Shown here in pieces: positions 2,755 through 60,697 of a stretch of DNA of 64,000 bases (position 1 is the first letter of the stretch; each line of letters starts with the position of its first letter). The notes under the pieces were generated by a model. It made no database searches, had not been told where the DNA came from, and worked only from the letters and a program-made list of their open reading frames with translations. Origin of the DNA: a virus; IMG/VR virus record IMGVR_UViG_3300033388_006651, positions 82,770-146,769 of that record, one strand, 5' to 3'. A program made the position numbers and the translations under genes.

Positions 2755-2805
2755 CTCACTTGAGTCCCGGCTATAGGAGGGTCAGTGGTTTTCTGAACAA
2801 AACCC

Positions 2806-2833
2806 TTGACTCTGCGTCTGAGGCGAGTACATT
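2806..2833 (+). promoter_or_regulatory. sigma70-like promoter for the tRNA cluster
   Basis: TTGACT-N16-TACATT about 80 nt upstream of tRNA-His. Confidence 0.55.
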
Positions 2834-2911
2834 CGGTTTCAAGGTAACTCTCATGTTGACGCAAGCACATACCCAGCTCCCCGATGCGGGAGCCGACTAC
2901 AACACCATCAT

Positions 2912-2988
2912 GGTGTCCGTAGCTCAGTTGGTAGAGCGTTCGCTTGTGACGCGAGAGGCCGCGGGTTCAAACCCCGTCGGACACCCCA
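2912..2988 (+). tRNA. trnH: tRNA-His(GTG) with encoded G-1 and CCA
   Basis: G-GTGTCCG/CGGACAC-C-CCA acceptor; anticodon loop TTGTGAC; GGTTCAAA T-loop. Confidence 0.93.
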
Positions 2989-3073
2989 AAAACCGCACTT
3001 CCGTGCAGTTTAGCTAGCCGAGGCTTCCCTTCGTCTTTGGGACGAAGTGGAGCTTCGGCACGCCGCATTTTAT

Positions 3074-3148
3074 GCCGCGGAAGCTGACTTGGTACGCAAG
3101 CGCTGGACTGAAAATCCGGAGGTGACAGTTCGATTCTGTCCCGCGGCA
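3074..3148 (+). tRNA. trnF: tRNA-Phe(GAA), no encoded CCA
   Basis: GCCGCGG/CCGCGGC acceptor; CTGGA-CTGAAAA-TCCGG anticodon arm; GTTCGATTC. Confidence 0.85.
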
Positions 3149-3170
3149 CAACCTAGAAGGAAACAAGACA

Positions 3171-3365
3171 ATGTCACTCATGTTCACTAATTACGATCGC
3201 CACACCATGTGCACGCATGCTGGCCTCCTTGGTCAAAAGGCCAAGGACGGAACCCAGACGTGTGTTCGTTGCGGCAAGACGGTTCTCCCTGCAGATGTGG
3301 AGCGCTTTACGAGGCCGGCTGGACGCAAGTCCGGTCGGCAGACTCAAGGCACTACCCCTTTGTAG
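3171..3365 (+). CDS. Small hypothetical protein (CxH...CxxC, possible Zn ribbon)
   Basis: AGAAGGA RBS upstream; 64 aa; 3' end overlaps the next tRNA. Confidence 0.45.
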   Translation: MSLMFTNYDRHTMCTHAGLLGQKAKDGTQTCVRCGKTVLPADVERFTRPAGRKSGRQTQGTTPL

Positions 3366-3432
3366 CTGAGATAGATTCAAGCGCGCGGTTGAAGCCCGCG
3401 AGACTCGGGTGCGAGCACCGACTGAGGGACCA
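3356..3432 (+). tRNA. Atypical tRNA-Phe(GAA) with CCA
   Basis: CCCTTTG/CTGAGGG-A-CCA acceptor with a mismatch; CGCGG-TTGAAGC-CCGCG anticodon arm; non-canonical TGCGAGC T-loop. Confidence 0.65.
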
Positions 3433-3450
3433 CAACGGTAGGATAGCAAC

Positions 3451-3966
3451 ATGATTCTCTGCACAGACGTGGACTACAACGACGACGGAACAGCCGTCGC
3501 CGCAGGCGTGACTCTCGAGAACTGGTCGGACGACCACGCGCTCGAGGAGCTCGTGGTGCACGTCGATGCCGTCGAACCTTACGTGCCCGGTCAGTTCTAC
3601 AAGCGAGAACTTCCGTGCATCCAAGCCATCATGGCGAAGCTGACTGGTGTCAGCCTCGTCATCGTGGACGGGTACACGTGGCTCTCGCCAGGACGCCCAG
3701 GTTTGGGAGCCCACCTGTGGGGTGATCTTGGGGGCTCGATCCCAGTGGTCGGTGTCGCCAAGGCGTACTTCAAAGATACGACGGCCACCGAAGTGTTCCG
3801 AGGTACCAGCAAGCGCCCGCTGTATGTGTCAGCCCAAGGGATGGACGACAGCGACGCGAGCATCCTGGTGCGCAACATGGCCGGGCGCAATCGGTTCCCG
3901 GAGATGCTCAAGCGCGTGGATCACCTGTGCCGGGGCCATGTTCTCCCGAAAGCGACGGCGTCATGA
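3451..3966 (+). CDS. nfi: Endonuclease V
   Basis: DVDY, PYVPGQFYKRELP, IVDGY, GLGAHL, IGVAK-like VGVAK and RGTSKRPLYVS motifs. Confidence 0.92.
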   Translation: MILCTDVDYNDDGTAVAAGVTLENWSDDHALEELVVHVDAVEPYVPGQFYKRELPCIQAIMAKLTGVSLVIVDGYTWLSPGRPGLGAHLWGDLGGSIPVVGVAKAYFKDTTATEVFRGTSKRPLYVSAQGMDDSDASILVRNMAGRNRFPEMLKRVDHLCRGHVLPKATAS

Positions 3967-4168
3967 TCTCGGGATTCGGCGGGTTCGGCGGTGCCGCGCC
4001 TGCAGCCACCCTCGTCACGGGGGATCACTGTGGTGCCGTGAGCACCGCATAGAGGTTTTCTGGAACTACAAGCGTGGAAGCCTCTCCTGGGAGGATTTCG
4101 TGCAGTACTACGGAGTTGACCCGGAAAGAGGCTCGATCGTTTGTCGGGAACCCGGGTATAAGGACTGA
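3938..4168 (+). CDS. Hypothetical protein (CxxC...CxxH)
   Basis: Fills the gap between nfi and the tRNA-like gene; start uncertain. Confidence 0.35.
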   Translation: MFSRKRRRHDLGIRRVRRCRACSHPRHGGSLWCREHRIEVFWNYKRGSLSWEDFVQYYGVDPERGSIVCREPGYKD

Positions 4169-4172
4169 CCAC

Positions 4173-4278
4173 GCCCAAGTAGCTCAGTGCAAGTCTGCGG
4201 TCACACGTTTCTTGCTTGGTAGAGCGGTCGGCTTAAACTCCGATGCGTCGAAGGTTCAAATCCTCTCCTTGGGCACCG
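4173..4278 (+). tRNA. tRNA-like gene with a 27-nt D-loop insertion and 8-nt anticodon loop (TAA at positions 34-36)
   Basis: GCCCAAG/CTTGGGC acceptor; GCTC/GAGC D-stem; GTCGG/CCGAT anticodon stem; GGTTCAAATCC T-arm; ends ACCG. Confidence 0.7.
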
Positions 4279-4284
4279 AAATTA

Positions 4285-4310
4285 TGTAAATTCTTCCCCC
4301 GCTCCGTGTA
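4285..4310 (+). promoter_or_regulatory. Class-A motif TGTAAA-N14-CGTGTA
   Basis: Ends 8 nt before ATG 4319. Confidence 0.7.
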
Positions 4311-4318
4311 CCTCTCAG

Positions 4319-4543
4319 ATGATTAAGATCGACCATACACAGCCGAATGCTGAGAAACTGGTAGGGCGTCTCGCGAACTGGAAGTTCAAGTCAGCCCTCC
4401 AGCACCTGGAGGGTCAATCGGACGAAGTCGTGGAGACGGTGAAGACACTCTCCACCATGTTCAGCAACTCGGGATGGTTTGAGGGCAACATGGGGCATCT
4501 AGTTAGTGTGGTCGTTCAGACCCTCGTGGAGTCCCACGAATGA
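4319..4543 (+). CDS. Hypothetical protein
   Basis: ORF directly behind the class-A motif, followed by RNase Z. Confidence 0.65.
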   Translation: MIKIDHTQPNAEKLVGRLANWKFKSALQHLEGQSDEVVETVKTLSTMFSNSGWFEGNMGHLVSVVVQTLVESHE

Positions 4544-4552
4544 GACAACATC

Positions 4553-5398
4553 ATGGAGAAATTAACTGTAGCAGGCGTGACCCTCGAAGGGTTCGCGCAA
4601 GGAGGGTGGCAGACTTCGATCTACTGCCCCGAAGTGAGAGCGGTTTTTGACGCGGGCTACGCCTTGCGTGCAAACGTAGAGAACTACTTCATCACGCACA
4701 GCCATCCCGACCACATCATGGCGCTCCCCTACATTGTGGGGCGCCGGGCGGTGTCGGCTGAGCGCAAGAAGATGATCATCCACGTCCCCGAGCAGATTCG
4801 GGAACTGACCGCTACGGTGATCCTCGGAAGCTGTCGCCTCTTCGGCGATCGGTGTCCCGAGGACTTCGTCGAAATCGTCGGGGTCAAGCCCGGCGACTCG
4901 ATCACGCTCAGCAAGCAGCACAGCGTCCAGGTGCTGCCTACGGTTCACCGTGGGCCCACCGTGGGTTACGTGGTCATGCAGCACACCCAGAAGCTCAAGC
5001 CCGAGTACGAGGGCATTGAGGGGCGTGAGCTGGGCCGTCTCCGTGGGGAGGGGGTCGAGATCACCGCAGCCCGTGTGTCGCCGATGCTGGCGATCCCTGG
5101 TGACACCCAGATCGAGTTCCTGCTCAACAACGAGCTGGCTCGAAAGGCCAAGGTCCTCGTTCACGAGGTCACGGTCTGGGACGAGGGGTTCAACAACGTC
5201 GAAGGCTGCCGTCGCTACGGCCACACGCACATCGCGGAGATGGTCGAGCACGCGCACAAGTTCGAGGGAGAGGCTCTCGTGCTTTGCCACCGCTCTATGC
5301 GGTGGACCCGGAAAGAGATCGAGGCGATCGCTCGTCGTCGGTTCCCAGAAGAGGTGCTCAAGAAGCTCCACTTCTTCGACGGTGGCGATCGCCTGTGA
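4553..5398 (+). CDS. rnz: tRNase Z short form, TM-type (metallo-beta-lactamase fold)
   Basis: THSHPDH, KLKPEYEGIEGRE...GVEIT exosite, PGDT, HEVT, GHTH and LCHRS motifs. Confidence 0.85.
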   Translation: MEKLTVAGVTLEGFAQGGWQTSIYCPEVRAVFDAGYALRANVENYFITHSHPDHIMALPYIVGRRAVSAERKKMIIHVPEQIRELTATVILGSCRLFGDRCPEDFVEIVGVKPGDSITLSKQHSVQVLPTVHRGPTVGYVVMQHTQKLKPEYEGIEGRELGRLRGEGVEITAARVSPMLAIPGDTQIEFLLNNELARKAKVLVHEVTVWDEGFNNVEGCRRYGHTHIAEMVEHAHKFEGEALVLCHRSMRWTRKEIEAIARRRFPEEVLKKLHFFDGGDRL

Positions 5399-5404
5399 TA
5401 CCTT

Positions 5405-5510
5405 GGCGATGATGGCAGGCGCGCTCTGGTTCCTGTCCATCGCCCCTCTCCCTGACCAAGCTGCGTATCCCTGGCCCGGGGAACGCTAGCCGGGAGAGGG
5501 GCCAGGGCGC
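5405..5510 (+). ncRNA. Candidate structured RNA (pseudoknot or alternative conformers) between convergent genes
   Basis: Helices 5405-5419/5432-5444, 5445-5452/5492-5499 and 5421-5431/5500-5510, with G-U pairs on the + strand. Confidence 0.45.
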
Positions 5511-6041
5511 TTACGGGTTGAATTTACCGCCGGGGAAATCGTAGATCGTCACCGGGATTCCGTGAGTCACGAAATGCTCGTCGATGAGCACTTCGATCCG
5601 AGCCCAGGAGCCGCCTGCGAGCCAGCAGCCCAGCCTGGGCATGTGAATTGAAACATTGCGTTCAGGGTTCTTGAGAGCGTACGCAGCCAGGTATTTGAAT
5701 CCCTGGCTGATGGCCTTGTAGCGGATGGGGGGCTCACCGCCTTTGGCGGTACGGATGCCCTGTTGTCCGATGATGTTGGCGACCGCGATGTTCTCTTCAA
5801 CAGGGACGAGCTGCATCGCCCCGAGGGGAAGTTTGTTGTCCCATTTCGATGCCCATAGCCGGTACATCTCTTCGGGGCGAGCCCATTGCTTGGAGAGCGA
5901 CATTACGAATCCGGCGCCCCATGCCCCGATACTGTTTGAACAATGTGCGATGATCTTGAGACCGTCACCCTCTGGCGCAGTGGCGTCGCCCTCGACATAC
6001 ATGACGAGGGGGGAGGGGGTCTGCTTTTTCGCGGCTGCCAT
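5511..6041 (-). CDS. Macrodomain protein, Poa1/TARG1/DarG-like
   Basis: YVEGDAT, IIAHCSN.IGAWGAGF, VANIIGQ and IHMPRLGC.LAGGSW motifs. Confidence 0.88.
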   Translation of the reverse strand: MAAAKKQTPSPLVMYVEGDATAPEGDGLKIIAHCSNSIGAWGAGFVMSLSKQWARPEEMYRLWASKWDNKLPLGAMQLVPVEENIAVANIIGQQGIRTAKGGEPPIRYKAISQGFKYLAAYALKNPERNVSIHMPRLGCWLAGGSWARIEVLIDEHFVTHGIPVTIYDFPGGKFNP

Positions 6042-6056
6042 CACCCATTATACGCG

Positions 6057-7049
6057 TCAGCTCAGGGCGAGTTCCCGTTTCTGGGCGTTCTCCGGGATGG
6101 AGGCCATTGCACGAAGATCGGCCATTGATCCCCGGAAGTAGTTGGCGTCCATCTCACCGCTCGTACCGGGCGGTCTTCCGTCTGGACGAGGCTCGTTGTT
6201 GGCGTGCTGGTGGATCACCCAGTCCCAGCCGGGGATCTCCCCAGTGGGTTCCTCGTAGATCCCTTTGTAGCCAGAGACGATCCACAGCGGGCACTGCGAC
6301 AGCGACATCGTCTTGGCCAGCCTGTATTTCCAGAAGTTCGGCCCGGTGTAAACGATGGGCCAGACCCCAAGTTCGTCCTTGATGTACTGGATGAACGCCT
6401 CACAGAAGACGACCACGTCGTTGGCTTTCACGCCGGCCTTGGTCGCGCGATCGTCCCACTCGATGTCCAACACGGGCGGCAGCATCCCGGGCAGGATCTC
6501 TCGGCCGTAGTGATCCAGGAACCATTCGGCTTCGTTGCGGCCATCCTCGGCGAACCCTTTTTCGCCGTCGCTGTTCTTGAGGGAGACTCGAGCGAAGTGG
6601 TAGGCGCTCCAGATCTTGCCGGCCGCGATCGCCTTCTCCTTGTTCTCAGCGAAACGGGGATCGGCGTAGCCTTCGCCTTTCTTGTCCTTGCCGCCTTCCG
6701 TGGCCTTGAGGATGACGAAGGGGAAATCGACCATCCTTTCGTGATCGACGGGCCCTTGATGTTTGGCGACATCGTAACCAAGCACGTCGTCGCGCTCGGT
6801 GAAGGCCGTCTCCCAGAGTTTGTGCGCTAGACGGAGGACCTCTGGCTCAGGGGCTTTGGGTTCTGGGAGTTCGGCGCCCTCGTTCGTCCACTTCGTGTTC
6901 TCAATGTGGAGTTCCTCGGTGGGTTTCCCTTTGGGAGCACCGTCCCGTGGAGGGTTCGAGAAGAACCCCAGGATACGCGCAATGAGGTCCGCGAAAGAGA
7001 ACACGGGGACTTTGTCACCGTGCATCTGGTCCCTGATTTCAACTTCCAC
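6057..7049 (-). CDS. GH25 lysozyme (muramidase) with N-terminal extension
   Basis: GYDVAKHQG, KATEG, AYHF, PPVLDIE, IVYTG and DAN motifs. Confidence 0.9.
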   Translation of the reverse strand: MEVEIRDQMHGDKVPVFSFADLIARILGFFSNPPRDGAPKGKPTEELHIENTKWTNEGAELPEPKAPEPEVLRLAHKLWETAFTERDDVLGYDVAKHQGPVDHERMVDFPFVILKATEGGKDKKGEGYADPRFAENKEKAIAAGKIWSAYHFARVSLKNSDGEKGFAEDGRNEAEWFLDHYGREILPGMLPPVLDIEWDDRATKAGVKANDVVVFCEAFIQYIKDELGVWPIVYTGPNFWKYRLAKTMSLSQCPLWIVSGYKGIYEEPTGEIPGWDWVIHQHANNEPRPDGRPPGTSGEMDANYFRGSMADLRAMASIPENAQKRELALS

Positions 7050-7062
7050 ATAAAGGGGCCAT

Positions 7063-7079
7063 CGATAGGGAGGCTATCG
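7063..7079. promoter_or_regulatory. Palindromic double class-B (putative late) promoter CGATAG-N5-CTATCG
   Basis: Reads as the GATAG-N5-CTATCG motif on both strands, 13-14 nt from each GH25 start. Confidence 0.6.
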
Positions 7080-7093
7080 CGACCCCCTCGGTG

Positions 7094-8128
7094 ATGGCTG
7101 AGATGATCCAGGGACTCGATGTAGCTCACCACCAGGGCAACGTAGATTTCGCGGAAGTCGCCGGTGATGGTTTCCGCTTCTGTGTGTGCAAGGCGACGGA
7201 GGGGGCCGACTACGAGGACCCGAAGTTTCGTGAAAACATGCGGAAGATCGCGGAGCTGCGTGTGGTCGATCCGTCCTTTTTCGGGGGCGCGTACCACTTC
7301 GCTCGACCGGACAACCGCACCGGCCGTGCTGGCGGTGAAACCGAAGGTCGCTGGTTCTCCCAGATTCTCAACGAGGTGTCGGCCGAGTACGGGTTCTCCA
7401 TCGAGCATGATTTTCTCGAACCCGCACTCGACTTCGAGAAGTACAGCGACTCAAGCGGCACCGACAACATCCCGTGGATCGAAGGGTTCCTCGATGTCCT
7501 CAAGAGTGAGACGGGTCGCGACGGGATGATCTACACGGGACCGAACGTGTGGATGTATGAGGTCAGCAACACGACCCAGTTCAACGACTACCCACTCTGG
7601 GAAGTCACTTACAGTTCGCAGGGATCGAACCCCGATGCCCAACCTCCCCGGATGCCGAAGAACGAACCCGACGAGCCGTACTGGGAGTGGACGTTCTGGC
7701 AGTGGAGCGGTGGAGGAGACTATGCCTACTACCACCGACAGTTCGGGGACATCGCCGGCATCCCCAGCGGCATCGCGGATGTGAACCGTCTCAACGGAGG
7801 TGAAGAGCGGTTGCTGGAGCTCGCCAACGCTGGCCATTTGCCACCTCCCCCGGTGAACGTGACGTGGCCTCGACCTCCTGAGCAGATCGATCTGAACGAT
7901 TTGCGTGGTGCGTACTCCGAGTACGTGTCCCGCGTGCAGGGTCTCCTGCTGGCGCACAAGTACGGACCCAGCGGACTCACCGGTTCCAACGGTTTGCCCG
8001 ACGGGTTGATGGGCAACAAGACCGAGACCTATCTCGAGGACTTCAAAGCGAAGCGTGCCCTGCCAGCCGATACGGTCGTGGACTGGGACACCTGGTGGGC
8101 CCTGGCCTACGACAACCTGCGGGCTTAG
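7094..8128 (+). CDS. GH25 lysozyme with C-terminal peptidoglycan-binding domain
   Basis: GLDVAHHQG, KATEG, GAYHF, ALDFE and WTFWQWS; C-terminal VQGLL..DGLMG..T...L..D.VV. Confidence 0.92.
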   Translation: MAEMIQGLDVAHHQGNVDFAEVAGDGFRFCVCKATEGADYEDPKFRENMRKIAELRVVDPSFFGGAYHFARPDNRTGRAGGETEGRWFSQILNEVSAEYGFSIEHDFLEPALDFEKYSDSSGTDNIPWIEGFLDVLKSETGRDGMIYTGPNVWMYEVSNTTQFNDYPLWEVTYSSQGSNPDAQPPRMPKNEPDEPYWEWTFWQWSGGGDYAYYHRQFGDIAGIPSGIADVNRLNGGEERLLELANAGHLPPPPVNVTWPRPPEQIDLNDLRGAYSEYVSRVQGLLLAHKYGPSGLTGSNGLPDGLMGNKTETYLEDFKAKRALPADTVVDWDTWWALAYDNLRA

Positions 8129-8550
8129 GCGCCCATCGCTTCACGGACGGCCGCGAGGGCATCCGTGTACGACTTCGTCGTGCCACGTTGCCGCATCTTG
8201 GGGTCGGCGGTGTAGTGCCAGGTCGAACCGTCCCACGCGATGTTCTGACCATGGCGCACGGCGACGGTGCCATCGGTGATCATTTCGCCGTAGACCGTGA
8301 CGGTCTTGAGGCAGCGGCAGGCGGCTTCCTGGATCTGGTCTTCGTCGAGTACATCGAGCACTTCACCGAGCTTGGTGTAAACGCGCATCAGTCCTTGGAT
8401 GGCGTCGTAGTGCGTCAGGTGGAGGGCGTCTTTGAACGTCAGTCCGGTGATGGCCATCCAGGGTCGGAGTACATCGATGATGGGGACGTTGGTGTCCTCG
8501 CGGAGGTTGCCGATTTCGACGATGGCGTCTTTGAGCGTGATTTGTGACAT
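8125..8550 (-). CDS. Hypothetical protein
   Basis: Good codon usage; AGGA RBS and a TTGACT element upstream. Confidence 0.7.
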   Translation of the reverse strand: MSQITLKDAIVEIGNLREDTNVPIIDVLRPWMAITGLTFKDALHLTHYDAIQGLMRVYTKLGEVLDVLDEDQIQEAACRCLKTVTVYGEMITDGTVAVRHGQNIAWDGSTWHYTADPKMRQRGTTKSYTDALAAVREAMGA

Positions 8551-8799
8551 GTGGTTTTGTGTCCTGTGTGGGTGAGGTCGAACCCCAAAGCCATGTTACC
8601 CACCGAAAAGTGCAGTCAAGTTGCTTTCGCCTGCATTTCGGGGCTCTCAGGGGCCCTCAGACGCCTCAAGAACCCCGAGGGCGCGTAGGAGGTCCCCGAG
8701 GCCCCGCCAACGCCCTCCGGGCCCCTGGTGGCGACCCTACGGCCGGGGTCTGGGCCTACCGCGCACCGGTAGTCGTCCTATCAGGAGCCCTTTCGTGAG

Positions 8800-9540
8800 A
8801 TGCGCATGAAGACTTCGACCTCGCCGGGTGGCCGCGAAGTGGGTTCTCCGAGTTTCACGAAACGGGAGACGAGCCCCATGGTGTCTGGTTCGATCAGCAC
8901 GGCGCTTTCGGCCCGGATCATTCGGCTCGCACATTCGCGCCCGGAACTGCGCGATGCGCTCCAGCCGCTGCTCTACGTGATCGCGGCCAAGCAGGACTCG
9001 GCCAGTTCGGAGCTCCGGCGGAAAGAGCAGAGGGAGTTCTCCGAACTCTTGAGCTTCGGTCCTCGGTTCGGCGTCATTTCGGCTCACGACGGGAAAGACA
9101 GCACCCAGAACCGGATCCGTCGAGCGAAGCTCATCACGGACCTTTCTCGACTGGGCTACCGGAAAGTGTCACCGATGCGAGGAAACTGGGAGCTGCTCCC
9201 GGAAGACTCGTTGATGATCCAGAACATCCGCCCGCAGGACCTGTTCCAGCTTGGCCGCAAGTACGGCCAGGAGTTTGTGGTGTTCTCTGACGAGCCTGGT
9301 CTCGTTGGTTTCTACTACCTGACCGGCGACCCGAAGACGCGCATCATCGTGGACCCCAAGGGTGACACGACGTTCCGTTCGTTGACGGACATGACGCCTT
9401 ACTCTCGAGCCCGTGGTCTCGATGTGGAGTTCGGTTTGCTGTGGTCCCAGGAGTTTCCGTGGGACGGCGGTGATCATCTCGATCGTCGTCGCGTCCGTAC
9501 CGAGCTCAAGAACCAGGGCCTCCAGAACGTGACGCCGTAA
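8800..9540 (+). CDS. Phage protein, DUF3293-like
   Basis: FGVISA...N....L..DL..LGY...G.W...E.S......LGRKYGQE pattern; class-B motif at 8778. Confidence 0.65.
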   Translation: MRMKTSTSPGGREVGSPSFTKRETSPMVSGSISTALSARIIRLAHSRPELRDALQPLLYVIAAKQDSASSELRRKEQREFSELLSFGPRFGVISAHDGKDSTQNRIRRAKLITDLSRLGYRKVSPMRGNWELLPEDSLMIQNIRPQDLFQLGRKYGQEFVVFSDEPGLVGFYYLTGDPKTRIIVDPKGDTTFRSLTDMTPYSRARGLDVEFGLLWSQEFPWDGGDHLDRRRVRTELKNQGLQNVTP

Positions 9541-9703
9541 CCGGTTCGTCAAGTTCTTTGGCGATCAGCTCTTCGAGCTTGTCGAGATCGATCTGGTGAA
9601 CGTGCAAAGGCACTTGCGAGGAAAGCCATTCTCGCTTTCGCCAGAAATCCACGATTGCCTTCGCTCGGGAGCGAGGGTTAGAGACAAGGGCGGCGGCAGC
9701 CAT
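9506..9703 (-). CDS. Small hypothetical protein
   Basis: TACGGT-N6-ATG leaderless-type start. Confidence 0.5.
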   Translation of the reverse strand: MAAAALVSNPRSRAKAIVDFWRKREWLSSQVPLHVHQIDLDKLEELIAKELDEPVTASRSGGPGS

Positions 9704-9809
9704 GGCTCAACCGTACCGATGAGAAGGGGGCGCGACGGCCGCGAAAAAGTCCAAAGTCTACGAAAACGGGGACTTTGGGAAATTTGTCGGAGCGGCGTCG
9801 GGAGATCTC

Positions 9810-9950
9810 TTACTCCTGTGGATCGGGCACAGCCTGTTCGTGAAGTTCTGCGACCCGGCTACTGCGCGCCGCTTCTTTGGCTTTGGCCTTGGCGTCTTTT
9901 GCCTTCGCCCCATTTTTGCGGGTGATTACGGGTGGTTCGCTAGCCATCAT
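9810..9950 (-). CDS. 46-aa Lys/Ala-rich small protein (not in ORF track)
   Basis: MMASEPPVITRKNGAKAKDAKAKAKEAA...; class-B motif GATAA-N5-CTATCA at 9962-9977 directly upstream. Confidence 0.5.
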   Translation of the reverse strand: MMASEPPVITRKNGAKAKDAKAKAKEAARSSRVAELHEQAVPDPQE

Positions 9951-9978
9951 TCAGGGGAAGCTGATAGGCCCGTTATCG

Positions 9979-10756: not shown

Positions 10757-10795
10757 ACCCCTTGTACGCTTTCGTGAAAAGTTGGGATCCGTTTG

Positions 10796-10821
10796 TGTAA
10801 AAAGTTCGCCCCCTCCGTGCA
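10796..10821 (+). promoter_or_regulatory. Class-A motif TGTAAA-N14-CGTGCA
   Basis: Exact spacing; lies at the head of a + strand gene run. Confidence 0.65.
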
Positions 10822-10919
10822 CAGGGTGAGACCAAGATGGCCACCACGTATCCGCGAATCGCGCACATCCTTTGGAGTCCGGGTGAGTCACATGATCCCC
10901 AGGTCTTTTTGGAGCACCT

Positions 10920-13789: not shown

Positions 13790-13797
13790 AGTGCCCC

Positions 13798-14004: not shown

Positions 14005-14042
14005 GTCCACGATTTTCACGGTACACCCCCCTGGAGGACTAC

Positions 14043-14801: not shown

Positions 14802-14846
14802 GAGTGCGGGTGAAATAACCTGGGCTCGCTCGGGTTAGGAACTACG

Positions 14847-15110: not shown

Positions 15111-15168
15111 TCAGGGATCAGTTGGCCTAGACGGGGATTTGTCCTCCATCGGCCCTGTCTAAGCTCCC

Positions 15169-19073: not shown

Positions 19074-19136
19074 TTCCACGAAAGGGATCGCAAGGGTAGC
19101 TAGCCTATAGCTCTCCCTCTTATGGAGGACCTCCTC

Positions 19137-21350: not shown

Positions 21351-21382
21351 CGCGAATCCTCCTATGGACTTCTACTCTGTAG

Positions 21383-21829
21383 ATGTCCCTGAATCATTGT
21401 CGGGTCTGCGCACAATGTACGCAGCATCCATGCACCTGCATTTCCAACTTCTGGATTCTCCCGGAGTCGGGAAAGAACACCCTCAAAGGGTGTGAGTGCG
21501 ACCCCGAGAATCCGATTCGGCTCCAGGACTGTTTCGTGATGCACGCGATCCAGCACTCGCAGAAGGCTCGAAACGATTTTTGCGATCTCTACCCCTCCTT
21601 GTTCCCCTGCGAGAAGGAACGTTTCGATCTCCTGTTCGGCGACAATCAGTACATCTCGCAGCTCGTGGTTGATCAGACGACTGATCAAGACACGTTCCAG
21701 CGACGGATGAACAACATCCCCGTCCATACGGCCGGGCGCGATGGTGGTCTGCGGCTTCCCGTGGGGTCTGTGACGGTGAACTTGCCGCCCCATTTGCAGC
21801 CGACCCGACAACCAACAAAATGTGGCTGA
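21383..21829 (+). CDS. Cys-rich hypothetical protein
   Basis: Class-B motif 15 nt upstream of a leaderless-type ATG. Confidence 0.65.
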   Translation: MSLNHCRVCAQCTQHPCTCISNFWILPESGKNTLKGCECDPENPIRLQDCFVMHAIQHSQKARNDFCDLYPSLFPCEKERFDLLFGDNQYISQLVVDQTTDQDTFQRRMNNIPVHTAGRDGGLRLPVGSVTVNLPPHLQPTRQPTKCG

Positions 21830-24846: not shown

Positions 24847-25479
24847 ATGAGCGACAAACGCAATCCATTTGGAGGCAAGAACCCGCACGGCATGTACGTG
24901 CCCATGACCGACGAGGAGATCGAAGTCCTCCACCGGATTGCCGAGGCCGGTGAGTTCAAGGTCGTCATCAAAGGGGAGGGTCAGAAAGGTGTATCGATCG
25001 ACTGGGGCTACGTCACCGGGTTCAAGATCGGCGCCTACCCAGGTCCGGGCCGATACCAGGGAGAGCCCATCGTCACGATCGGTGACAAGCGCCTCACCTT
25101 TTTCCTTCGGATGAACTTCAACGCGCCTGTTCTCCCGCAGCCCAACTGGTTCTTCGACATGGAGGTCCACGCGATGGGGCGCCTGTTTTTCTCGCAGCGG
25201 TTTCCGACGGCCAACGGAGGCAACCCGATCCAGATCTGCGCCGGCATGTTCCACGACTTCGCCCTGGACGTGGCCATCGACCAGATCGATCCTGCTCTCG
25301 TCAAAGAGGTGAAGCCCAAAACCCTCGGTCTCACCACGAGGCATGGCAACATGCGGCTCGATTCTTTCACCCAGCGTCTTTTGCATAAAACGCAGCAGGG
25401 GGAGCAGGCGGTTCGTAAAATCACGGCCGACGAGGCCCGTAAAGCCACTGCGGACAAGAAGAAGGCAACGGGTCAGTAA
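24847..25479 (+). CDS. Hypothetical phage protein
   Basis: NPFGGKNPHGMYVPMTDEE; good codon usage. Confidence 0.75.
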   Translation: MSDKRNPFGGKNPHGMYVPMTDEEIEVLHRIAEAGEFKVVIKGEGQKGVSIDWGYVTGFKIGAYPGPGRYQGEPIVTIGDKRLTFFLRMNFNAPVLPQPNWFFDMEVHAMGRLFFSQRFPTANGGNPIQICAGMFHDFALDVAIDQIDPALVKEVKPKTLGLTTRHGNMRLDSFTQRLLHKTQQGEQAVRKITADEARKATADKKKATGQ

Positions 25480-25509
25480 CGGTCCTATAGGGGCCCCTCT
25501 GCTAGAAGG

Positions 25510-26450: not shown

Positions 26451-26577
26451 AAAGAGCCTCTCGTTTTTCGAGATAGGCGCGCTTTTTTCGCTATGCGCGA
26501 TTTGAGCGCATTTTGGAGGTCCACGGGTCTCGGTTTTCGGTTGATAGGCGCCCCTCTACCAGAGAGGCAATCAACCG

Positions 26578-32770: not shown

Positions 32771-32850
32771 TTCCGCGAAAGAGCCTATGAGCCGCCCCTA
32801 AGCAGGGGTGGCCTCTAGGCGGTCACCCCGCGAACGGAGCCTAAGTAACC

Positions 32851-40984: not shown

Positions 40985-41359
40985 TCAAACTCTTGATCCG
41001 CCTGGGATAACGCTTCGCAAAAAGCCCTCGGAGCCCTACTAGGGGCCCCCTATAGGGGAAAACATGTTTTTGGCGCTAGGAACGCATTGCGATCCCGCGA
41101 AAGGAGCCTTCTGGAGCCCTTGGGCGGAGTGCGCAGCGAATTCTCCTATGGGCGCCCCTCAGATGAGAAGGCCGGATGAACACCACACCCAGCATTTTTT
41201 CGTCGATCTCGTTGGCGCGCAAAGCGGCCTTTTCCTTTTCCACGAATGCGTGGAGTTCGAGGGGCGTGGCCGAAACGTGCGTCCTGGTTTCGCAAACTTC
41301 GCGTCAACGCACGCGGTTTTAATCCCTCTATGGGCCTCCCTTCATAGGAACGCACGTAG

Positions 41360-47442: not shown

Positions 47443-47998
47443 TGCTCCGCACAACCCTGCTAGCTACTCTCACCGCGCTCAGCGTCGCGTGCGACGCCGG
47501 AACTATTGGAGCGGGTGGGGGGATGATGTCTGAGCCCAGAGACGGAGGACCATGCGACGGTTAATCTTTTACGTCCTGCTGGTCATCCTCGCTCGTGCTG
47601 GTCTCCTGTGGGCCCGAGGGGGGGGGGAAATGAGCCGACGCGCTTCAGACCCAAGAGACCGACCTTCAAGCCTACGTGGCCTGATCGACCCTGGGAATAG
47701 AGCACCGAGAAGCCCGGTAGTTGAGCGTGTCCCGGGCTCGAGGAGTCCTTCTCAGGAGCCGTCAGATGCGCCTTGAGCAACGATAATGTTGCTCGCCCTT
47801 TCGGGGGCCGTGATCCGCGGAACGCCTCAGTGGCGCTCCTATGGCGTTGGGCTGGGGATCAGCGTATGATGGGGAGTCGTTGTCGCTAAAACACATCAGA
47901 CGGCTCTCTAGACGGTCACAACGGCCAAAGCCCCCAAGATCCCAGGCGGGATTATTTGCGGGGAGTACAAAACACAGAGCCCGCACGGAAGGGCCCAC

Positions 47999-53471: not shown

Positions 53472-54071
53472 ATGTTCACAGCTCGCAACGGACGCCAGTG
53501 TTTCCTCCTCGCCATCGAAGGCCCTGACCGGGTCGGTAAAGCCACGCAGGCTCAGCTTCTCGCAGAGCGGCTCATGCCCCACAAGGCAACCGTCGAAGAG
53601 ATCCCGTACGACGAGGGTGTCACGTACCCGGAGATCTACGCGATGCTCCGTTCAGGAGCGGTGGACAAGCACCCGGTCATCTTCCAGACCTTGCAGGGGA
53701 CGAATCGTCGCTTCTTCCAAAAGAACTTCCTGCCGACCCTGGCTTCGCACTACGACGTGCTGATCCTGGACCGGTGGAACCTTTCGACCCGTGTGTACGG
53801 CAGGGCCAGCGGAGTCTCCGAGGGCGCCACCAACACGATCTTGGAAGGCATCGTCGAGCCCGATGTGACGCTCGTGTTTGACGGCAAACCGTTCCCCAAA
53901 GAGGGCCTCGATGTGTGGGAGGCCAACCTCCCGTTCCAGAAGCGAGTGCGGGAGCTGTACCTGGAGTACTGCGCAAAGTCGCCGGAGCACTTCGTGAAAA
54001 TCGATGCCGAGCGGCCAGTGGAGGTGATTCAGGAAGAGGTCCTGGCCATCGTTCGCAGCCGGTTACGTTAA
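53472..54071 (+). CDS. tmk: Thymidylate kinase
   Basis: IEGPDRVGKATQ P-loop, ILDRW.LST.VY, PD and FQKRVRE.Y motifs. Confidence 0.92.
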   Translation: MFTARNGRQCFLLAIEGPDRVGKATQAQLLAERLMPHKATVEEIPYDEGVTYPEIYAMLRSGAVDKHPVIFQTLQGTNRRFFQKNFLPTLASHYDVLILDRWNLSTRVYGRASGVSEGATNTILEGIVEPDVTLVFDGKPFPKEGLDVWEANLPFQKRVRELYLEYCAKSPEHFVKIDAERPVEVIQEEVLAIVRSRLR

Positions 54072-54103
54072 TTTCTCTATGGGTCTGCCCATGCAGAGGC
54101 CCC

Positions 54104-55420
54104 ATGCAGAAACTCATCGAGCTGTTCCTGAACATTCTCAAGTCCATCTTCGGACGTGGGGGAGGTTCTTCCAAAGCCGTAGAGGCCCCCAAGACATGGG
54201 AGAACGGCAAGAAGGACGCTGAGGTCAAGAAGACCCAGAAGAAGCTGCTCCAGCTCGGCCACGAGTTCTCAGGGGGCAGTGACGGTGAGCTTGGGGACCA
54301 CACTCGGACGGGTATCGAGGATTTCAAGAACGAGCACGACATCGAAGAGGAGGGGATCGGTGAGAAGACCCTGGCCAAGCTCGAAGAGGAGCATGTCAAA
54401 CTCGCGATCCCAGCGGACCTGGAAATCGAAGTCGGTGACGACAACGACGACTTCGACGGTACGAAGGTCACCGACTACCAGAAGAAGCTCATCGCCCTCG
54501 GCCACGACATGCCTCGGTTCGGGGCCGACGGTTCTTTCGGTGACGAGTCTCTGGTCTCCACCAAGGAGTTCCAGAACGAGAACGCAGACAAGATCGCAGA
54601 CGAAGATGCTTTCGACGCTCAGGGTGTGGGTCCCAAGACCTATGCCACGGTCATGGCCGCAGAGATTCCCAAGCCTTCCAACAAGCCAGCCGTCTCGGCG
54701 CCTCCGACAAGGGGTCTTACCGGCAAGCCTCCCGCCGGGATGATCGTCACGAAGGATGACCATCCGCTCAAGAAGGGTCGCGGCACTCGGAAGCTCAAAG
54801 ACATCGAAGGCGTGACGCTGCATCAGACCGCCTGTGTCCTCGGCGAGAAGGAGCACCGTTGGTACAACGTCGCCTGCCACATTGCGATCACGCGTGAAGG
54901 CAAGATCATCTACAACAACGACTTCATCAAGAAGATCTGGCACGGCAACGGGTTCAACACCAAGACCATCGGCATCGAGATCGACGGTCACTTCGCCGGG
55001 CTCGAGGAGCAGAACGACGCCGGTGAGTGGGTCCCCGACATGAGGTCCTATTGGCGCCCGAAGAACTCGAAGCGCACACCGGTGTCCGTCACGGACGCCC
55101 AGATCGAAGCCTGCAAGGAAGCCATCCGTTGGGTGAAGCGTGTGGTCGATGCGGCTGGTGGTGACTTCAAGTACATCCTGGCCCACCGCCAATCGAGCCC
55201 GTCCCGCGTCAGCGACCCGGGCCAAAAGACGTGGCGTCTCATCGCCATGCCGCTCATGGAGGAGCTGGGCATGGAGGACGGTGGGGACGACTACTACGTC
55301 CTGGACAGCAAGAAACGCGCTGGAAAGCCCATTCCAGAGGCGTGGGATCCACAGCGCCATGCTGGTGTTTCGTACAGGGCCAAGACCTCGACTAAGGGTC
55401 GCAAATCCTACGGCCCATAA
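54104..55420 (+). CDS. N-acetylmuramoyl-L-alanine amidase with two peptidoglycan-binding domains (endolysin)
   Basis: Two QKKL..LG...DG.(L/F)G repeats; TLHQTA, CH, WHGNGFN, IGIEIDG and AHRQ...SDPG. Confidence 0.9.
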   Translation: MQKLIELFLNILKSIFGRGGGSSKAVEAPKTWENGKKDAEVKKTQKKLLQLGHEFSGGSDGELGDHTRTGIEDFKNEHDIEEEGIGEKTLAKLEEEHVKLAIPADLEIEVGDDNDDFDGTKVTDYQKKLIALGHDMPRFGADGSFGDESLVSTKEFQNENADKIADEDAFDAQGVGPKTYATVMAAEIPKPSNKPAVSAPPTRGLTGKPPAGMIVTKDDHPLKKGRGTRKLKDIEGVTLHQTACVLGEKEHRWYNVACHIAITREGKIIYNNDFIKKIWHGNGFNTKTIGIEIDGHFAGLEEQNDAGEWVPDMRSYWRPKNSKRTPVSVTDAQIEACKEAIRWVKRVVDAAGGDFKYILAHRQSSPSRVSDPGQKTWRLIAMPLMEELGMEDGGDDYYVLDSKKRAGKPIPEAWDPQRHAGVSYRAKTSTKGRKSYGP

Positions 55421-56198: not shown

Positions 56199-56234
56199 CG
56201 CCCGGTTATGGGTCTATCGAGACCCTTCAAGTAG

Positions 56235-56855
56235 ATGGGCGTGCCAATCGTCAAAACCGCTGTGGTGTTCAGGCCAAAGCGGAACTGGAAGCCCAAGCGC
56301 CGGGATCGCAACATCACGCGCCGGAAGAAGCGCAAGGGCTGGTGGCGTCGCAACAAGCACCGGATCAAGTTACGTCGAAATAAGCGTCAGCGGATGCTCA
56401 AGCACAACTCCATGTTCAAGGCGTGGAGGAAGAAGCGGACGAAGGAGAAGAGCAAGCGTCGTATGCGATTCGGCGCCGATGGCAGCCCCGACTTCCCGCA
56501 GAGCTGGTTCGTGTTCCGCGAAGACGTGGAAGAGGGCAAGCAGCTCGACCTCGACATGGGTTACATCGTCGATTACGACCCCGATGCCGAGGACCTGCTG
56601 ATCTTCGACGTGGATGAGAACAAGGAGAAGACCGTTGATCTCGACGAGTTCCTCACCCACAGTGAATTCCTCGAGGAGGCCGACCTCGACAACTTCGAGC
56701 TCATCATGGACCAGTACTACGGTGGTCCCGAAGACGACCTGGACATTGTGCCGGACGAAGACCAAGCGCCTCGCACGGAGTTCGAGGTGGACATGTCCGA
56801 GTTCAGTCAGAAGATCGCGAACACCTGGCTTCGCCAGATGGTGCGGAAGGGATAG
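56235..56855 (+). CDS. Bipolar protein: very basic N-half, very acidic C-half
   Basis: Composition read directly; class-B motif at 56214. Confidence 0.8.
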   Translation: MGVPIVKTAVVFRPKRNWKPKRRDRNITRRKKRKGWWRRNKHRIKLRRNKRQRMLKHNSMFKAWRKKRTKEKSKRRMRFGADGSPDFPQSWFVFREDVEEGKQLDLDMGYIVDYDPDAEDLLIFDVDENKEKTVDLDEFLTHSEFLEEADLDNFELIMDQYYGGPEDDLDIVPDEDQAPRTEFEVDMSEFSQKIANTWLRQMVRKG

Positions 56856-57169: not shown

Positions 57170-57439
57170 ATGCCAACTCCAGACCCAAAGAAAGTAGCCA
57201 AGCAGTTCCTCGCTCAACGCGGGGACTCCTGGAAGGACCTGTACCTGGCGCCTTACCCTCGCGGGCTTACTCGGCATCTTCCGAGCGAACTCGACGTAGT
57301 GTGGTGGCGTGCCGGTGAACTCCACGAAGGCGATCTCCATGACTTCATCGCGGCTGACGATGACGAAACCATCAACGACGATGCGGCCTACAAGGTTGAC
57401 AACAAACGCGTGCGTGCGGACAAGGTGTATCTCCGATGA
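57170..57439 (+). CDS. Hypothetical protein
   Basis: ATGA coupling to the next gene. Confidence 0.65.
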   Translation: MPTPDPKKVAKQFLAQRGDSWKDLYLAPYPRGLTRHLPSELDVVWWRAGELHEGDLHDFIAADDDETINDDAAYKVDNKRVRADKVYLR

Positions 57440-59460
57440 GCGCCCGTAAACAGATGCGCCTCCAGGTGCTCAACAAGCCCTGGTACGAGAAGGTCTCCCT
57501 TCAAGACGCCAACACCGTCCACATGGAGAACGTCGAGACCATCACCGAGATGCTCGAACGGCGCAAGGACAAGAAGCGACCGATCCACATCGTGGGCATC
57601 GCGGGATCGAACCGGCACCCGAACAACCCGTCGCACGAGACGAGCAACTCGTGGCTGATGATCCGCAAGGCGATGGAGCACCTGTCCCACATGGACAACG
57701 TGACCACCCACGCCTTCAACCTGCCGACGATGGAGATCGAGCACTGCAACGGGTGCCGTTCCAGCACGAGTTCCCTGTGCCGGTTCCCCTGTATTGCCGC
57801 AGGAGAGCGCGTCCAGGGTGCGGGAATGAAGCGTATCGAAGAATTACGCGCAGGAGACGAGATTTCCACGGGAGTGGTCACGAAAGCGTGGCAATCGGGA
57901 ATCAAGTCTACTTTTTGGCTCACGTTATCTGATGGGCGTCGTCTCCGGCTCACGGACAACCACCCTGTCAAAGTGATCACGAGCAAAACGCGTACGAAGG
58001 AGACTGGATGGAAATGGGCGCCTGTTACAGAGTGGGTTGAGGTCAAGGACCTTGAAGTGGGAGACAAAATTCCTTTCGTGGTCGGAGGGGATTTCGGTCT
58101 CGGTATCGACCAGGCCCCGCATGATTTTCTTCTTGCCGGCGCGGTGTTCGGGGATGGATCTTTCTTCGGCACGAATCACGACGATGTTTGCGTGTACTAC
58201 GACGAACGATCGGCGGGCCTCGCCACGGCGCTAAAAACGGAAGTTCCTTACGAGGTGAAAGACCGGAAGCATGCGGTTAAGGCTGAGGTATGCGAGAAAC
58301 ATGGTTGGCCTTCTTCAGCGTGTGACCACATGAGGAAGGTTGTCTATCATCCTCGCATTGGTCGAATGCTAAAACACAGGATCGGCCTGGACAAAAGCGT
58401 GTCGGTGTCGCAACGGCGCCTCCCGGACGCTGTGATGGAAGGATCGCGCGAACAGGTGGCAGCGTTTCTTCGCGGATGGTTTTCCGCAGATGGCTCTGTC
58501 AATATGCACGGAGACGGCTACGGCCGTGTGTCGCTTAGCAGCTCCAGCGTACAGGCCCTTCGTGACGCCCAGATGTTGTTTGCCAAGCTCGGAATTCGTT
58601 CGTGCATGTACGATCTTTCCCACATCAAAGTGGTGGAGGAAAACCGGAGTTTCACTCGAGCGAGTGAGCTTCAAATTACGGACGCTACCCACATCAAACT
58701 TTTTGCCGAAATCGTCGGATTCGCAGAAAATAACAAAACGGCCAAGATTCAGGAGTTTCCCGAACGGCGCCCATGTTCTCGGCCATACGGTAAAGTTGTT
58801 TCTATTGAGGCCACGGGAGTTGACGAACCGGTTTACGACATCACCGTGGAAGGGACGCATGAATTCGTCGCTGGCGGTATTCCTGTACATAACTGTGATT
58901 GCTGGCCCTACGACGACATGCAGGATGTCTACGCCCAGCTCACCCTGGCCGACGGCATCCTGTTCGGAACTCCGGTTGCGTCTCTACAAGTCGGGTCACG
59001 TCTCAAGGCCCTGATTGATCGCCTCATCTCGATGGACGGTGGCCGGTTCGCTCCCATGTACAACGTGGACGGGGCGACCTGGAAGAACCCAGAGTCCAAG
59101 AACGCTGAGCAGCGAGTTGGGATGCGTGGGGACTTCCGGTACGTCCAACGACTGGCCGGGAAGGTCTGTGCCGCGTTCGCCACCGGTAAGGATTCTGGTT
59201 CCTACGACGTGGCCATGAAGGTCTTGTCGGCCATGAACCAGCGTGGGTGTTTCATCCCTCCCAACGCGGTGGTGAACTGGAACAGCCCACGAGTCCACAA
59301 GGACACGGCTTACGACAAGCACGATTTCCTCAAGGCGCTCGAGCCAGGGGGATACCTTGGTGACTTGATCGATCAGACGTGCGAGACCGTGGTTGAAGCT
59401 GCGACGCTTATCCGAGGCAACGAAGATCTCTGGATGAAGACGCTGGCGGGTCGCACCTGA
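57436..59460 (+). CDS. Flavodoxin-fold iron-sulfur flavoprotein / NADPH-dependent FMN reductase family protein, intein-containing
   Basis: IVGIAGSNR, CNGC...C...CDC, DDMQ..Y..L..ADGILFGTPV and LKALIDRL motifs. Confidence 0.88.
   Translation: MSARKQMRLQVLNKPWYEKVSLQDANTVHMENVETITEMLERRKDKKRPIHIVGIAGSNRHPNNPSHETSNSWLMIRKAMEHLSHMDNVTTHAFNLPTMEIEHCNGCRSSTSSLCRFPCIAAGERVQGAGMKRIEELRAGDEISTGVVTKAWQSGIKSTFWLTLSDGRRLRLTDNHPVKVITSKTRTKETGWKWAPVTEWVEVKDLEVGDKIPFVVGGDFGLGIDQAPHDFLLAGAVFGDGSFFGTNHDDVCVYYDERSAGLATALKTEVPYEVKDRKHAVKAEVCEKHGWPSSACDHMRKVVYHPRIGRMLKHRIGLDKSVSVSQRRLPDAVMEGSREQVAAFLRGWFSADGSVNMHGDGYGRVSLSSSSVQALRDAQMLFAKLGIRSCMYDLSHIKVVEENRSFTRASELQITDATHIKLFAEIVGFAENNKTAKIQEFPERRPCSRPYGKVVSIEATGVDEPVYDITVEGTHEFVAGGIPVHNCDCWPYDDMQDVYAQLTLADGILFGTPVASLQVGSRLKALIDRLISMDGGRFAPMYNVDGATWKNPESKNAEQRVGMRGDFRYVQRLAGKVCAAFATGKDSGSYDVAMKVLSAMNQRGCFIPPNAVVNWNSPRVHKDTAYDKHDFLKALEPGGYLGDLIDQTCETVVEAATLIRGNEDLWMKTLAGRT
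57790..58893 (+). mobile_element. Intein (368 aa) with LAGLIDADG homing endonuclease
   Basis: Begins CIAAG; block B LTDNHP; LAGAVFGDGS and FLRGWFSADGSV; ends VYDITVEGTHEFVAGGIPVHN|C. Confidence 0.95.
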
Positions 59461-59503
59461 CCTCGGTAGTTAGCCCATAGCATCTCCTTTGTTGGAGGCG
59501 CTC

Positions 59504-59980
59504 ATGGTTCTGTTGGCTGAAAGCATCACGTTGGACTACGGGACCATCCTCACCGTTGCGGGGATTGTATTCGGTGCAGGTGGTGTCATCGGCGGTTTGA
59601 AGCTCAAGGCGATTTTGGCTGAGGCCAAGACCAAGGACGTTGGCGAGCAATCCGAGAAGGCGAAGGAAAAGCTCGAACGTGTTGATGAAAAGATCTTCGA
59701 CGAGATCAAGAACATCAATAAGACGATGCAGCGTCGTTTCAACTCCCAGGACGACAAGGCGGCCAGCGCCGAGAAGTCGATGATCGGCAAACTGGAGAAC
59801 TTCCAGTCCAAGGTGTTCACCCGTCTCGATGGCGTGCAAGAGAAGTTGTCCGACCAGGACAAGCGCATTACGGTGGCCGAAACGGAAGCCAAGCACACTC
59901 GTGAAAAGGTCACCAAACACGCCCAGAAGATCACGATGTACGGCAAAGAGGCGTTCAAAATGCCGGAACGTGATTCGTAG
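59504..59980 (+). CDS. Single-TM coiled-coil protein (possibly lysis-related)
   Basis: N-terminal TM helix then a long coiled coil; GGAGG RBS; class-B variant at 59475. Confidence 0.7.
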   Translation: MVLLAESITLDYGTILTVAGIVFGAGGVIGGLKLKAILAEAKTKDVGEQSEKAKEKLERVDEKIFDEIKNINKTMQRRFNSQDDKAASAEKSMIGKLENFQSKVFTRLDGVQEKLSDQDKRITVAETEAKHTREKVTKHAQKITMYGKEAFKMPERDS

Positions 59981-60068
59981 AGATCAGTCGTCGATCTGAT
60001 CCAGCTCGAAAGGGCTCGAGCGCCGTTTCCCGGTTCAGACCCTTGGATCGTGATCCAAGGGTCTGAGA

Positions 60069-60545
60069 TCAGGGTTGCTCCTCGGAACCTTGGTTTTGGT
60101 AGAGCCACAGGAGCTCGAACGCCTCCTGGCTCAGCGTGTCTTCGAGTTCGGCCCCGACACGTAGAACGAGGGACTGCCCTTCATCACCACGGCAGTAGCA
60201 AACGAAGCCCACGTCGCCGTCGCCGTACTCGAAATGATCGAAGCCCGGATGGGTTGCATGTTGCCACAGGAACGAGAGGAGGTCCGTCTCCTGTTGGCAG
60301 CTCATCACGATCGGCCGAAGTTCTTTTCCGAAGATGTTCCAACGAACGGAGTGCGCACGTTTGATGTACTCACCGTCGTTGTCTTGCCATGTGCTGACGC
60401 AGTAGTAGCCACCCTGTCCCGCGAGCGGCACTTTTTCCGGATAGACCTCCCACCCTTTGGCTTTGAGTGTGTCAGCGATACGCTCGGCCTCCGCACGCGA
60501 ACTTTTCAAGGTGGCGGTGTGATCTTCGTAGTCGGTGTCGGACAT
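60069..60545 (-). CDS. Hypothetical protein
   Basis: CTATGG-N16-ATG start; good codon usage. Confidence 0.65.
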   Translation of the reverse strand: MSDTDYEDHTATLKSSRAEAERIADTLKAKGWEVYPEKVPLAGQGGYYCVSTWQDNDGEYIKRAHSVRWNIFGKELRPIVMSCQQETDLLSFLWQHATHPGFDHFEYGDGDVGFVCYCRGDEGQSLVLRVGAELEDTLSQEAFELLWLYQNQGSEEQP

Positions 60546-60697
60546 CCTGTTAACGCACATCCCATAGCCGCGCCCGTGACGCAGAGGTAGGTCCTAGTCG
60601 TACCTGTATGGGATCAGGACACCAGTTTCCGAAATGCGTGTATTTCGTGAAAAGGCGCCTGAGATCAATGCTTTTCAAGATGCGCCTCTCACGCAAG

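Follow-up and report, generated by a model that had tools for sequence, protein, structure and literature searches.

The window analysed here is a 64,000-nt stretch of virus DNA comprising bases 82770-146769, i.e. the last 64 kb, of the 146,769-bp IMG/VR virus contig IMGVR_UViG_3300033388_006651. A motif built around the core CTATNG recurs in its intergenic gaps and had previously been read, from the letters alone, as a candidate phage-specific late promoter (below: the sequence-only reading). The contig has a G+C content of 59% and a CheckV completeness of 28%, which marks it as a fragment of a huge phage. Most of its proteins are without a Pfam or PHROG match, and a megablast search with positions 40000-62000 of the window against phage records gave no match. 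The motif was followed in a relative, G001 (IMGVR_UViG_3300022719_000283; 618,736 bp, 92% complete), whose proteins are 75-79% identical to those of the contig, and in two more distant relatives that are fragments, G002 (95.6 kb) and G003 (152 kb). Because gene calling relied on a simple self-trained codon-usage model, start codons are approximate.

Motif sites in the window

The 15 main sites and two variants of the sequence-only reading are all present in the places it gave. For minus-strand sites it gave the left end of the hexamer, and the core C sits 5 nt higher. Single coordinates of window sites in the text follow that reading, and positions within the motif are counted from the C of CTATNG (position 0). 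Scores in bits refer to a matrix of 20 columns (-14..+5) that was trained on 16 contig sites and does not include the C block and the purine block described below. ORF stands for open reading frame and pI for isoelectric point.

2754..2787, minus strand: 16.6 bits, ATG at +22; gene 1138-2754(-), haloperoxidase/PAP2-like (PF22778).
7046..7079, minus strand: 15.7 bits, GTG at +19; gene 6057-7049(-), GH25 lysozyme; inverted overlap with 7063..7096.
7063..7096, plus strand: 15.3 bits, GTG at +17 or ATG at +20; gene 7091-8128, GH25 lysozyme with PG-binding domain.
8767..8800, plus strand: 18.5 bits, ATG at +22; gene 8800-9540; orthologous G001 site 22277(-).
9945..9978, minus strand: 18.5 bits, ATG at +17 and +20; small ORF of about 45 aa downstream.
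19094..19127, plus strand: 17.0 bits, GGAGG at +19, ATG at +32; gene 19137-19340, 67 aa, pI 10.3; G001 site 17738(-).
21351..21384, plus strand: 19.8 bits, ATG at +21; gene 21383-21829, ATG within a hairpin; G001 site 15496(-).
25474..25507, plus strand: 18.2 bits, ATG at +25; ORF 25510-25677, 55 aa, pI 11.1; G001 site 12768(-).
26531..26564, plus strand: variant, core starting TGAT, upstream box, C block and purine block normal, 2.8 bits; gene 26578-27291.
32774..32807, plus strand: 14.5 bits, followed immediately by a 9-bp hairpin; gene 32851-40149 (2432 aa), start at +66; G001 site 4181(-).
41033..41066, minus strand: 12.9 bits, upstream box weak; 118 nt upstream of gene 40215-40937(-).
41135..41168, plus strand: 17.0 bits, purine block at +19, ATG at +17 and +30; no clear downstream ORF.
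41317..41350, plus strand: 12.7 bits, ATG at +32; gene 41360-44722, 1120 aa, Laminin_G_3 lectin domain (fibre-like).
47828..47861 (core 47839), plus strand: 14.9 bits, without C block; additional candidate and weaker case, absent from the sequence-only reading.
54066..54099, plus strand: 17.7 bits, ribosome-binding site at +18, ATG at +27; gene 54104-55420, Amidase_2 and PG-binding domain; G001 site 602586(-).
56203..56236, plus strand: 14.7 bits, ATG at +21; gene 56235-56855, basic, pI 9.4; present in the G001 orthologue with one core change.
59464..59497, plus strand: variant, core CCAT, 13.3 bits, GGAGG at +19, ATG at +29; gene about 59504-59980.
60545..60578, minus strand: 12.3 bits, upstream box weak, ATG at +22; gene 60069-60545(-); G001 site 597731(+).

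Structure and enrichment of the motif

Sites aligned on the core give a motif of 34 bp, CGGTAR-N4-C-CTATNG-N4-CCCYT-N4-RRRR. It consists of an upstream box (-11..-6), the nearly invariant core (0..+5), a loose C block near +10..+14 and a purine block at +19..+22. Column counts refer to an aligned set of 55 sites. The last position of the core is G in 43 of these, and the second G of the GG in the upstream box is present in 26. Columns on which the matrix was not trained are conserved as well: C is found at +10..+12 in 33-38 sites, and the purine run is fixed at +19..+22 in 44-52 sites. This fourth block was missed in the sequence-only reading, and its upstream box, GGTAG or GCGAA, proved too narrow, since the actual box is CGGTAR with C, G, T and A conserved. 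Its statement that the motif is unlike the sigma-70 consensus holds; the motif columns contain no TTGACA-like and TATAAT-like hexamers 16-18 bp apart.

Information is low outside about 12 columns, with two gaps of four unconserved positions, and falls to zero beyond -11 and +22. The motif thus ends sharply, and this boundary, together with the divergence of orthologous flanks, rules out a dispersed or interspersed repeat or mobile element. When the upstream box is compared with the reverse complement of the core, 3-4 of 6 mirrored positions agree; the T at +3 is unmirrored.

The motif is enriched over shuffled and simulated controls in both the contig and G001, a check that the sequence-only reading had proposed. 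A loose regular expression covering the entire motif matches the contig 13 times (1.0 +/- 1.0 in dinucleotide shuffles). With the contig-trained matrix, G001 contains 26 matches of at least 14 bits, compared with 3.9 +/- 2.2 in order-3 Markov simulations, and 20 of them fall in the intergenic 13% of that genome. Within G001 intergenic DNA, 19 matches stand against 1.05 +/- 1.07 in simulations of intergenic composition (maximum 3 in 40 runs). Nineteen G001 matches lie at 110-590 kb, apparently outside the coverage of the contig as judged by orthologous sites, not by alignment. In an unbiased count of hexamers upstream of G001 genes, the palindromic core ranks second (14 occurrences, 1.1 expected). 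An excess at 14 bits is also seen in G002 (5 vs 0.2) and G003 (6 vs 0.6).

Nearly all intergenic matches of at least 12 bits are oriented toward the next gene (19/19 in the contig and 28/31 in G001, together 47/50). In gaps between genes on the same strand, where chance would give one half, the orientation is toward the gene in 30 of 30 cases.

Conservation among relatives

The haloperoxidase/PAP2-like gene 1138-2754(-) has many phage relatives and allowed a footprint reading of its upstream region. Seventeen relatives with 63-96% identity were compared, including G001-G003 and metagenome contigs; L086 is a duplicate of L085. At least 11 of the 17 keep an invariant core and an ATG at +21 or +22 that is preceded by a purine-rich word of five bases, while the gaps and everything upstream of -11 have diverged. 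Three relatives (L093, L094 and L095) have a CTAT core upstream at other spacings, with the ATG at about +31, +22 and +20, respectively, and without the purine-rich word. No clear core was found before this gene in L096 and L097. Further orthologous pairs likewise keep the site in diverged surroundings, and the variant TGAT core of 26542 also precedes the G001 orthologue.

A sub-family of the motif, in which the upstream box is followed by a T run, was observed at contig position 8383(+), G001 100720(-), G002 13558(+) and G003 72292(-). All four genomes share a near-identical leader, in which the ribosome-binding site lies at +19 and an ATG at +29 opens a gene for a 218-aa protein. The nearest named cellular homologues of the haloperoxidase/PAP2-like protein are from Myxococcota (about 42-45% identity), a weak hint at the host group.

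Start codons and two kinds of site

The first start codon that opens an ORF mostly lies 16-32 nt after the core C. ATG triplets pile up at +16/17 (9), +19..+22 (19) and +29..+32 (13), where chance, estimated from base composition, would give about 0.7 per position. Longer leaders are found at 41328, 32785 and 41050. Two kinds of site can be distinguished. In the first, the ATG stands at +21/22 directly behind the purine block, leaving no room for a ribosome-binding site, and the N-termini of the proteins are kept in relatives. In the second, represented in the window by 19105, 54077 and 59475, the stretch +18/+19..+23 is GGAGG or close to it, with the ATG at +27..+32. As the GGAGG at +18/+19 is coupled to a later ATG, the purine block is fixed relative to the core and not to the start codon.

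The seven start codons that the sequence-only reading named as lacking a ribosome-binding site were correctly described. Its wider suggestion of leaderless mRNAs stands in part. About half of the sites place the ATG where a leaderless or near-leaderless mRNA would begin, but the subset with normal ribosome-binding sites, among them 19105, 54077 and 59475, had been overlooked. Judged by the ATG peak at +21/22 without a ribosome-binding site, about half of the sites would most likely yield leaderless or nearly leaderless mRNA. Phage transcripts are stated to be often leaderless (PMC5312081). A reading of the motif as an archaeal TATA/BRE element was dropped because GGAGG-type ribosome-binding sites are used and because, for one gene, the closest homologues from cellular organisms come from bacteria.

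A plus-strand and a minus-strand motif overlap at 7046-7096 such that each core forms the upstream box of the other, and the pair fills the entire 41-bp gap between the divergent GH25 lysozyme genes. Since this gap contains only the two motifs, both transcripts must begin there, which favours a promoter at the DNA level over an RNA element. Folding of +4..+31 in the 55 sites gives a mean z of only -0.84, with strong hairpins in a minority. These start at +4..+6 and reach -19 kcal/mol at 32785; at 21362 and its G001 orthologue, the pairing is kept while the loop differs. RNAalifold predicted no pair and no covariation in 12 orthologous leaders of the best-sampled family. On the basis of the mean z and the RNAalifold result, a 5' hairpin was rejected as a general feature.

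A second promoter-like class

A second conserved arrangement, TGTAAA-N14-CGTGYA, occurs in 7 copies in the contig (window 550-60723; e.g. 40984(-) and 60698(+)). Its form in G001 is GTAAAW-N13-CRTGHA, with an invariant 13-nt spacer and 23 copies compared with 0 for a backwards control. The proximal hexamer is -10-like and is followed by an ATG after 6-8 nt in 12 of the 23 G001 copies; in the remaining copies inspected, a ribosome-binding site starts 5-8 nt after it. Both classes have a GTAA-type distal box about 30-33 nt before the ATG, at 31-33 nt in the second class and 30-31 nt in the studied motif. By analogy with this frame and with the same alternative of ATG or ribosome-binding site, transcription from the studied motif would be placed near +19..+22.

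The two classes occur in tandem at 40937-41066(-). Gene 40215-40937(-) is directly preceded by a second-class site (40984, minus strand), with the studied motif 118 nt upstream, an arrangement reminiscent of other giant phages, in which genes can carry two temporal promoters. Consensus sigma-70 sites are not enriched, as a scan of window positions 1-20000 found 1 site where 4.0 were expected. This lone match at 2806-2833(+) (TTGACT, 16 nt, TACATT) lies just upstream of tRNA-His (2913-2988) and is kept in relatives. TTGACT is also commoner than expected upstream of G001 genes (16 vs 3.5).

Functions of the downstream genes

Late expression would suit one group of genes behind the motif, those for two giant fibre-like proteins, a cement-like protein, three hydrolases of the cell wall and small basic proteins. 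It is not evident for a second group, which comprises a CCA-adding enzyme, a zinc-ribbon protein, a haloperoxidase-like enzyme and many genes without assigned function. Searches of G001 for capsid (PF05065) and sheath (PF04984) proteins found nothing. The designation as a late promoter is no more than plausible, being favoured by the hydrolases and fibre-like genes but not by the haloperoxidase-like protein, the CCA-adding enzyme and the uncharacterized proteins. Among other genes, inteins with LAGLIDADG domains interrupt an FMN-reductase-like protein (window 57436-59460(+)) and an SNF2-family helicase (contig 33517-37650(+)).

Candidate proteins for motif recognition

To the sequence-only reading, the motif was the recognition site of a phage-encoded sigma factor or RNA polymerase. 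No phage RNA polymerase was detected in the 92%-complete G001, but a divergent sigma-like protein is encoded there. The T7-type polymerase family PF00940 had no match in G001, in a search whose control was also silent, and when the T7 gene 1 protein was compared by phmmer with every six-frame ORF of G000 and G001, nothing was returned at E <= 10. The beta/beta-prime families PF00562 and PF00623 had no match in G001 (controls positive in 14/14 genomes), and the beta-prime catalytic/metal-binding motif was not found there in its context.

The sigma-like protein of G001, encoded at 481076-482308 on the minus strand, has 410 aa, with a weak Pfam sigma region 2 and a C-terminal helix-turn-helix. 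It has 324 homologues, many of them labelled sigma-24 family by JGI. A profile of 29 of these homologues matched sigma-H (3MZY) in the PDB with an E value of 0.0019 over 157 residues, and the top Foldseek matches of its AlphaFold model (mean pLDDT 67.5) are nearly all sigma factors (E 0.002-0.1). It is a single gene, as the sigma-family profile detected no paralogue in G001. Given that no polymerase was found and one sigma-like gene is present, a host polymerase combined with a phage specificity factor is the most economical and the most likely reading.

Giant ORFs, the longest of 3669 aa, follow one another at G001 118771-129780(-) and in a neighbouring block, and at 499-29345 of the contig. 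These ORFs have no Pfam, PHROG or PDB sequence match, and the sole phage-record relative of the 3669-aa ORF is the unannotated 485-kb LR745208.1. A 1924-aa ORF with a DVDGD motif was considered as a crAss-like polymerase and rejected, because the region of this motif is matched by a tail protein of Tunturiibacter phage Tunturi_5 and, by sequence, by nothing in the PDB.

Interpretation

The 34-bp motif is a real, conserved and oriented signal and very probably a promoter confined to a narrow clade of huge phages. Somewhat better than even, in our estimate, is the more specific reading that it serves as core promoter for a transcription class peculiar to these uncultured phages of ~600 kb and is read by a retargeted host polymerase. 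The host's multisubunit RNA polymerase would be directed to it by a phage protein, for which the divergent sigma-like protein of the clade and an activator bound over the core are candidates. Transcription would start at about +19..+22, and the RNA would open at the ATG (leaderless, at about half of the sites) or directly at the GGAGG ribosome-binding site.

Several observations weigh against this retargeted-host promoter. The 7-12 nt before the ATG are C-rich and variable, whereas known -10 elements have a conserved A and T, and in some orthologues the C block is missing altogether. The best-conserved block would come to lie near -20, which matches no described sigma class. With GGAGG at +19 and a start at +19..+22, the ribosome-binding site would be at the 5' extremity of the RNA or truncated. 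The sigma-like gene is not on the contig itself, and nothing ties its product to the studied motif rather than to the second class. The strict motif is not enriched in G004-G007, which bear sigma homologues, or in LR745208.1; as the motif is confined to a narrow clade, its absence from such distant phages is uninformative on the link to sigma. Finally, the giant ORFs without matches could hide a polymerase that is no longer recognizable.

Such a polymerase would be central to the alternative that the motif is an initiator-type promoter of an unrecognised phage RNA polymerase, with the start at +4/+5 and leaders of 16-27 nt, some of them with a 5'-terminal hairpin. The core, which is identical or near-identical to the T7/SP6 initiation box (TATA-G), invites this explanation. 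The late promoters of phiKZ likewise consist of TATG with the G as +1 (PMC4666361), and both likenesses had escaped the sequence-only reading. The G at +5 (43/55) and the core as the sole AT-rich, nearly invariant block, as expected where melting begins, would fit, as would the strong hairpins from +4..+6 in a subset (32785; 21362 and its G001 orthologue) and the presence of giant unannotated ORFs. The explanation is nevertheless unlikely, given that no T7-like or multisubunit polymerase is detectable in G001 and that the motif is degenerate with two unconserved gaps, unlike the promoters of single-subunit polymerases. It also leaves the purine block at +19 and the ATG right behind it unexplained, and hairpins are no regular companion of the core, as the low mean folding z and the missing consensus RNA structure in the best-sampled orthologue family indicate.

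Quite unlikely, too, is that a dimeric phage regulator, either an activator or a repressor, binds the upstream box and the core as the two halves of its operator, which would overlap a weak promoter without being the site that the polymerase recognises. The upstream box is near the reverse complement of the core, with the partial agreement of mirrored positions given above and a centre-to-centre distance of 11 bp, and at 7046-7096 each core doubles as the upstream box of the other site. The symmetry is only partial, however, with an invariant T at +3 that has no mirrored partner and a variable +4, and neither the strict gene-ward orientation nor the oriented downstream blocks are expected for a symmetric operator. 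There is, furthermore, no other promoter-like element beside the sites, sigma-70-type sites being not enriched. An RNA-level element of the 5' leader (a processing site, translational operator or stabiliser) transcribed from promoters further upstream would account for the fixed distance to start codons, and in some sites the C and purine blocks are complementary and could sequester the ribosome-binding site or the ATG. We regard it as very unlikely: the divergent pair at 7046-7096 leaves upstream promoters no room outside coding sequence, neither consensus structure nor covariation is seen, and transcription would have to include the upstream half of the motif, although no promoter-like sequence precedes -11.

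The retargeted-host promoter can be extended, tentatively and with less than even confidence, to a picture in which two private classes drive much of the ~600-kb phage genomes. Both would use GTAA-type distal boxes and RNAs that start at the ATG or the ribosome-binding site. The studied class, without a -10-like element and with an invariant box about 20 bp upstream, would then represent an undescribed recognition mode for a bacterial polymerase with a phage sigma factor or co-factor.

Knowledge of huge phages comes almost entirely from metagenomes. With a validated promoter model, their genomes could be divided into transcription units and temporal classes. Such a model would offer a handle for pairing the sigma-like protein of the clade with its DNA target. 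It would also make clear whether translation in these phages depends on leaderless messages, which bears on their many translation genes. The odd geometry of the motif, whose strongest box lies near -20 and whose proximal region is C-rich, might further point to a novel means of guiding a bacterial polymerase.

Comparison with known promoter systems

A literature search found no description of the motif, and a survey of huge phages mentions phage sigma factors and no promoter motifs (PMC7162821). The defining features of the T7/SP6, phiKZ and sigma-54 promoter families are none of them fully present in the motif. Like T7 and SP6 promoters, it has a core corresponding to their initiation box, two conserved blocks upstream of the G and a dedication to phage genes; theirs, however, are contiguous (about 17-23 bp), near-identical within a genome and dependent on a T7-like polymerase, whereas the motif is gapped. 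The late promoters of the phiKZ non-virion RNA polymerase share the short TAT-G box, the giant phage and the weak flanking conservation. In contrast to the motif, they are without conserved upstream and downstream blocks, and phiKZ encodes a split beta/beta-prime, which was not detected in G001. With sigma-54 promoters (GG at -24, GC at -12) the motif shares the spacing from GG to core, GG-N8-tetramer, but its GG is not invariant across orthologues and an AT-rich core takes the place of the -12 GC.

Alternative sigma classes with short spacers (12-15 nt) offer a further comparison. As in their promoters, the boxes of the motif are about 14 nt apart and the start would lie 6-8 nt past the proximal box, and a sigma-70-family protein is present in the clade. 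The proximal box of the motif is, however, C-rich and loose, and its strongest block falls within what would be the spacer, near -20. The second class of the same phages, GTAAAW-N13-CRTGHA, resembles the motif in that a distal box of GTAA type stands about 31 nt ahead of the ATG and in the ATG or ribosome-binding site at the predicted start; it differs in lacking a core box and in its -10-like hexamer, whose second position is A.

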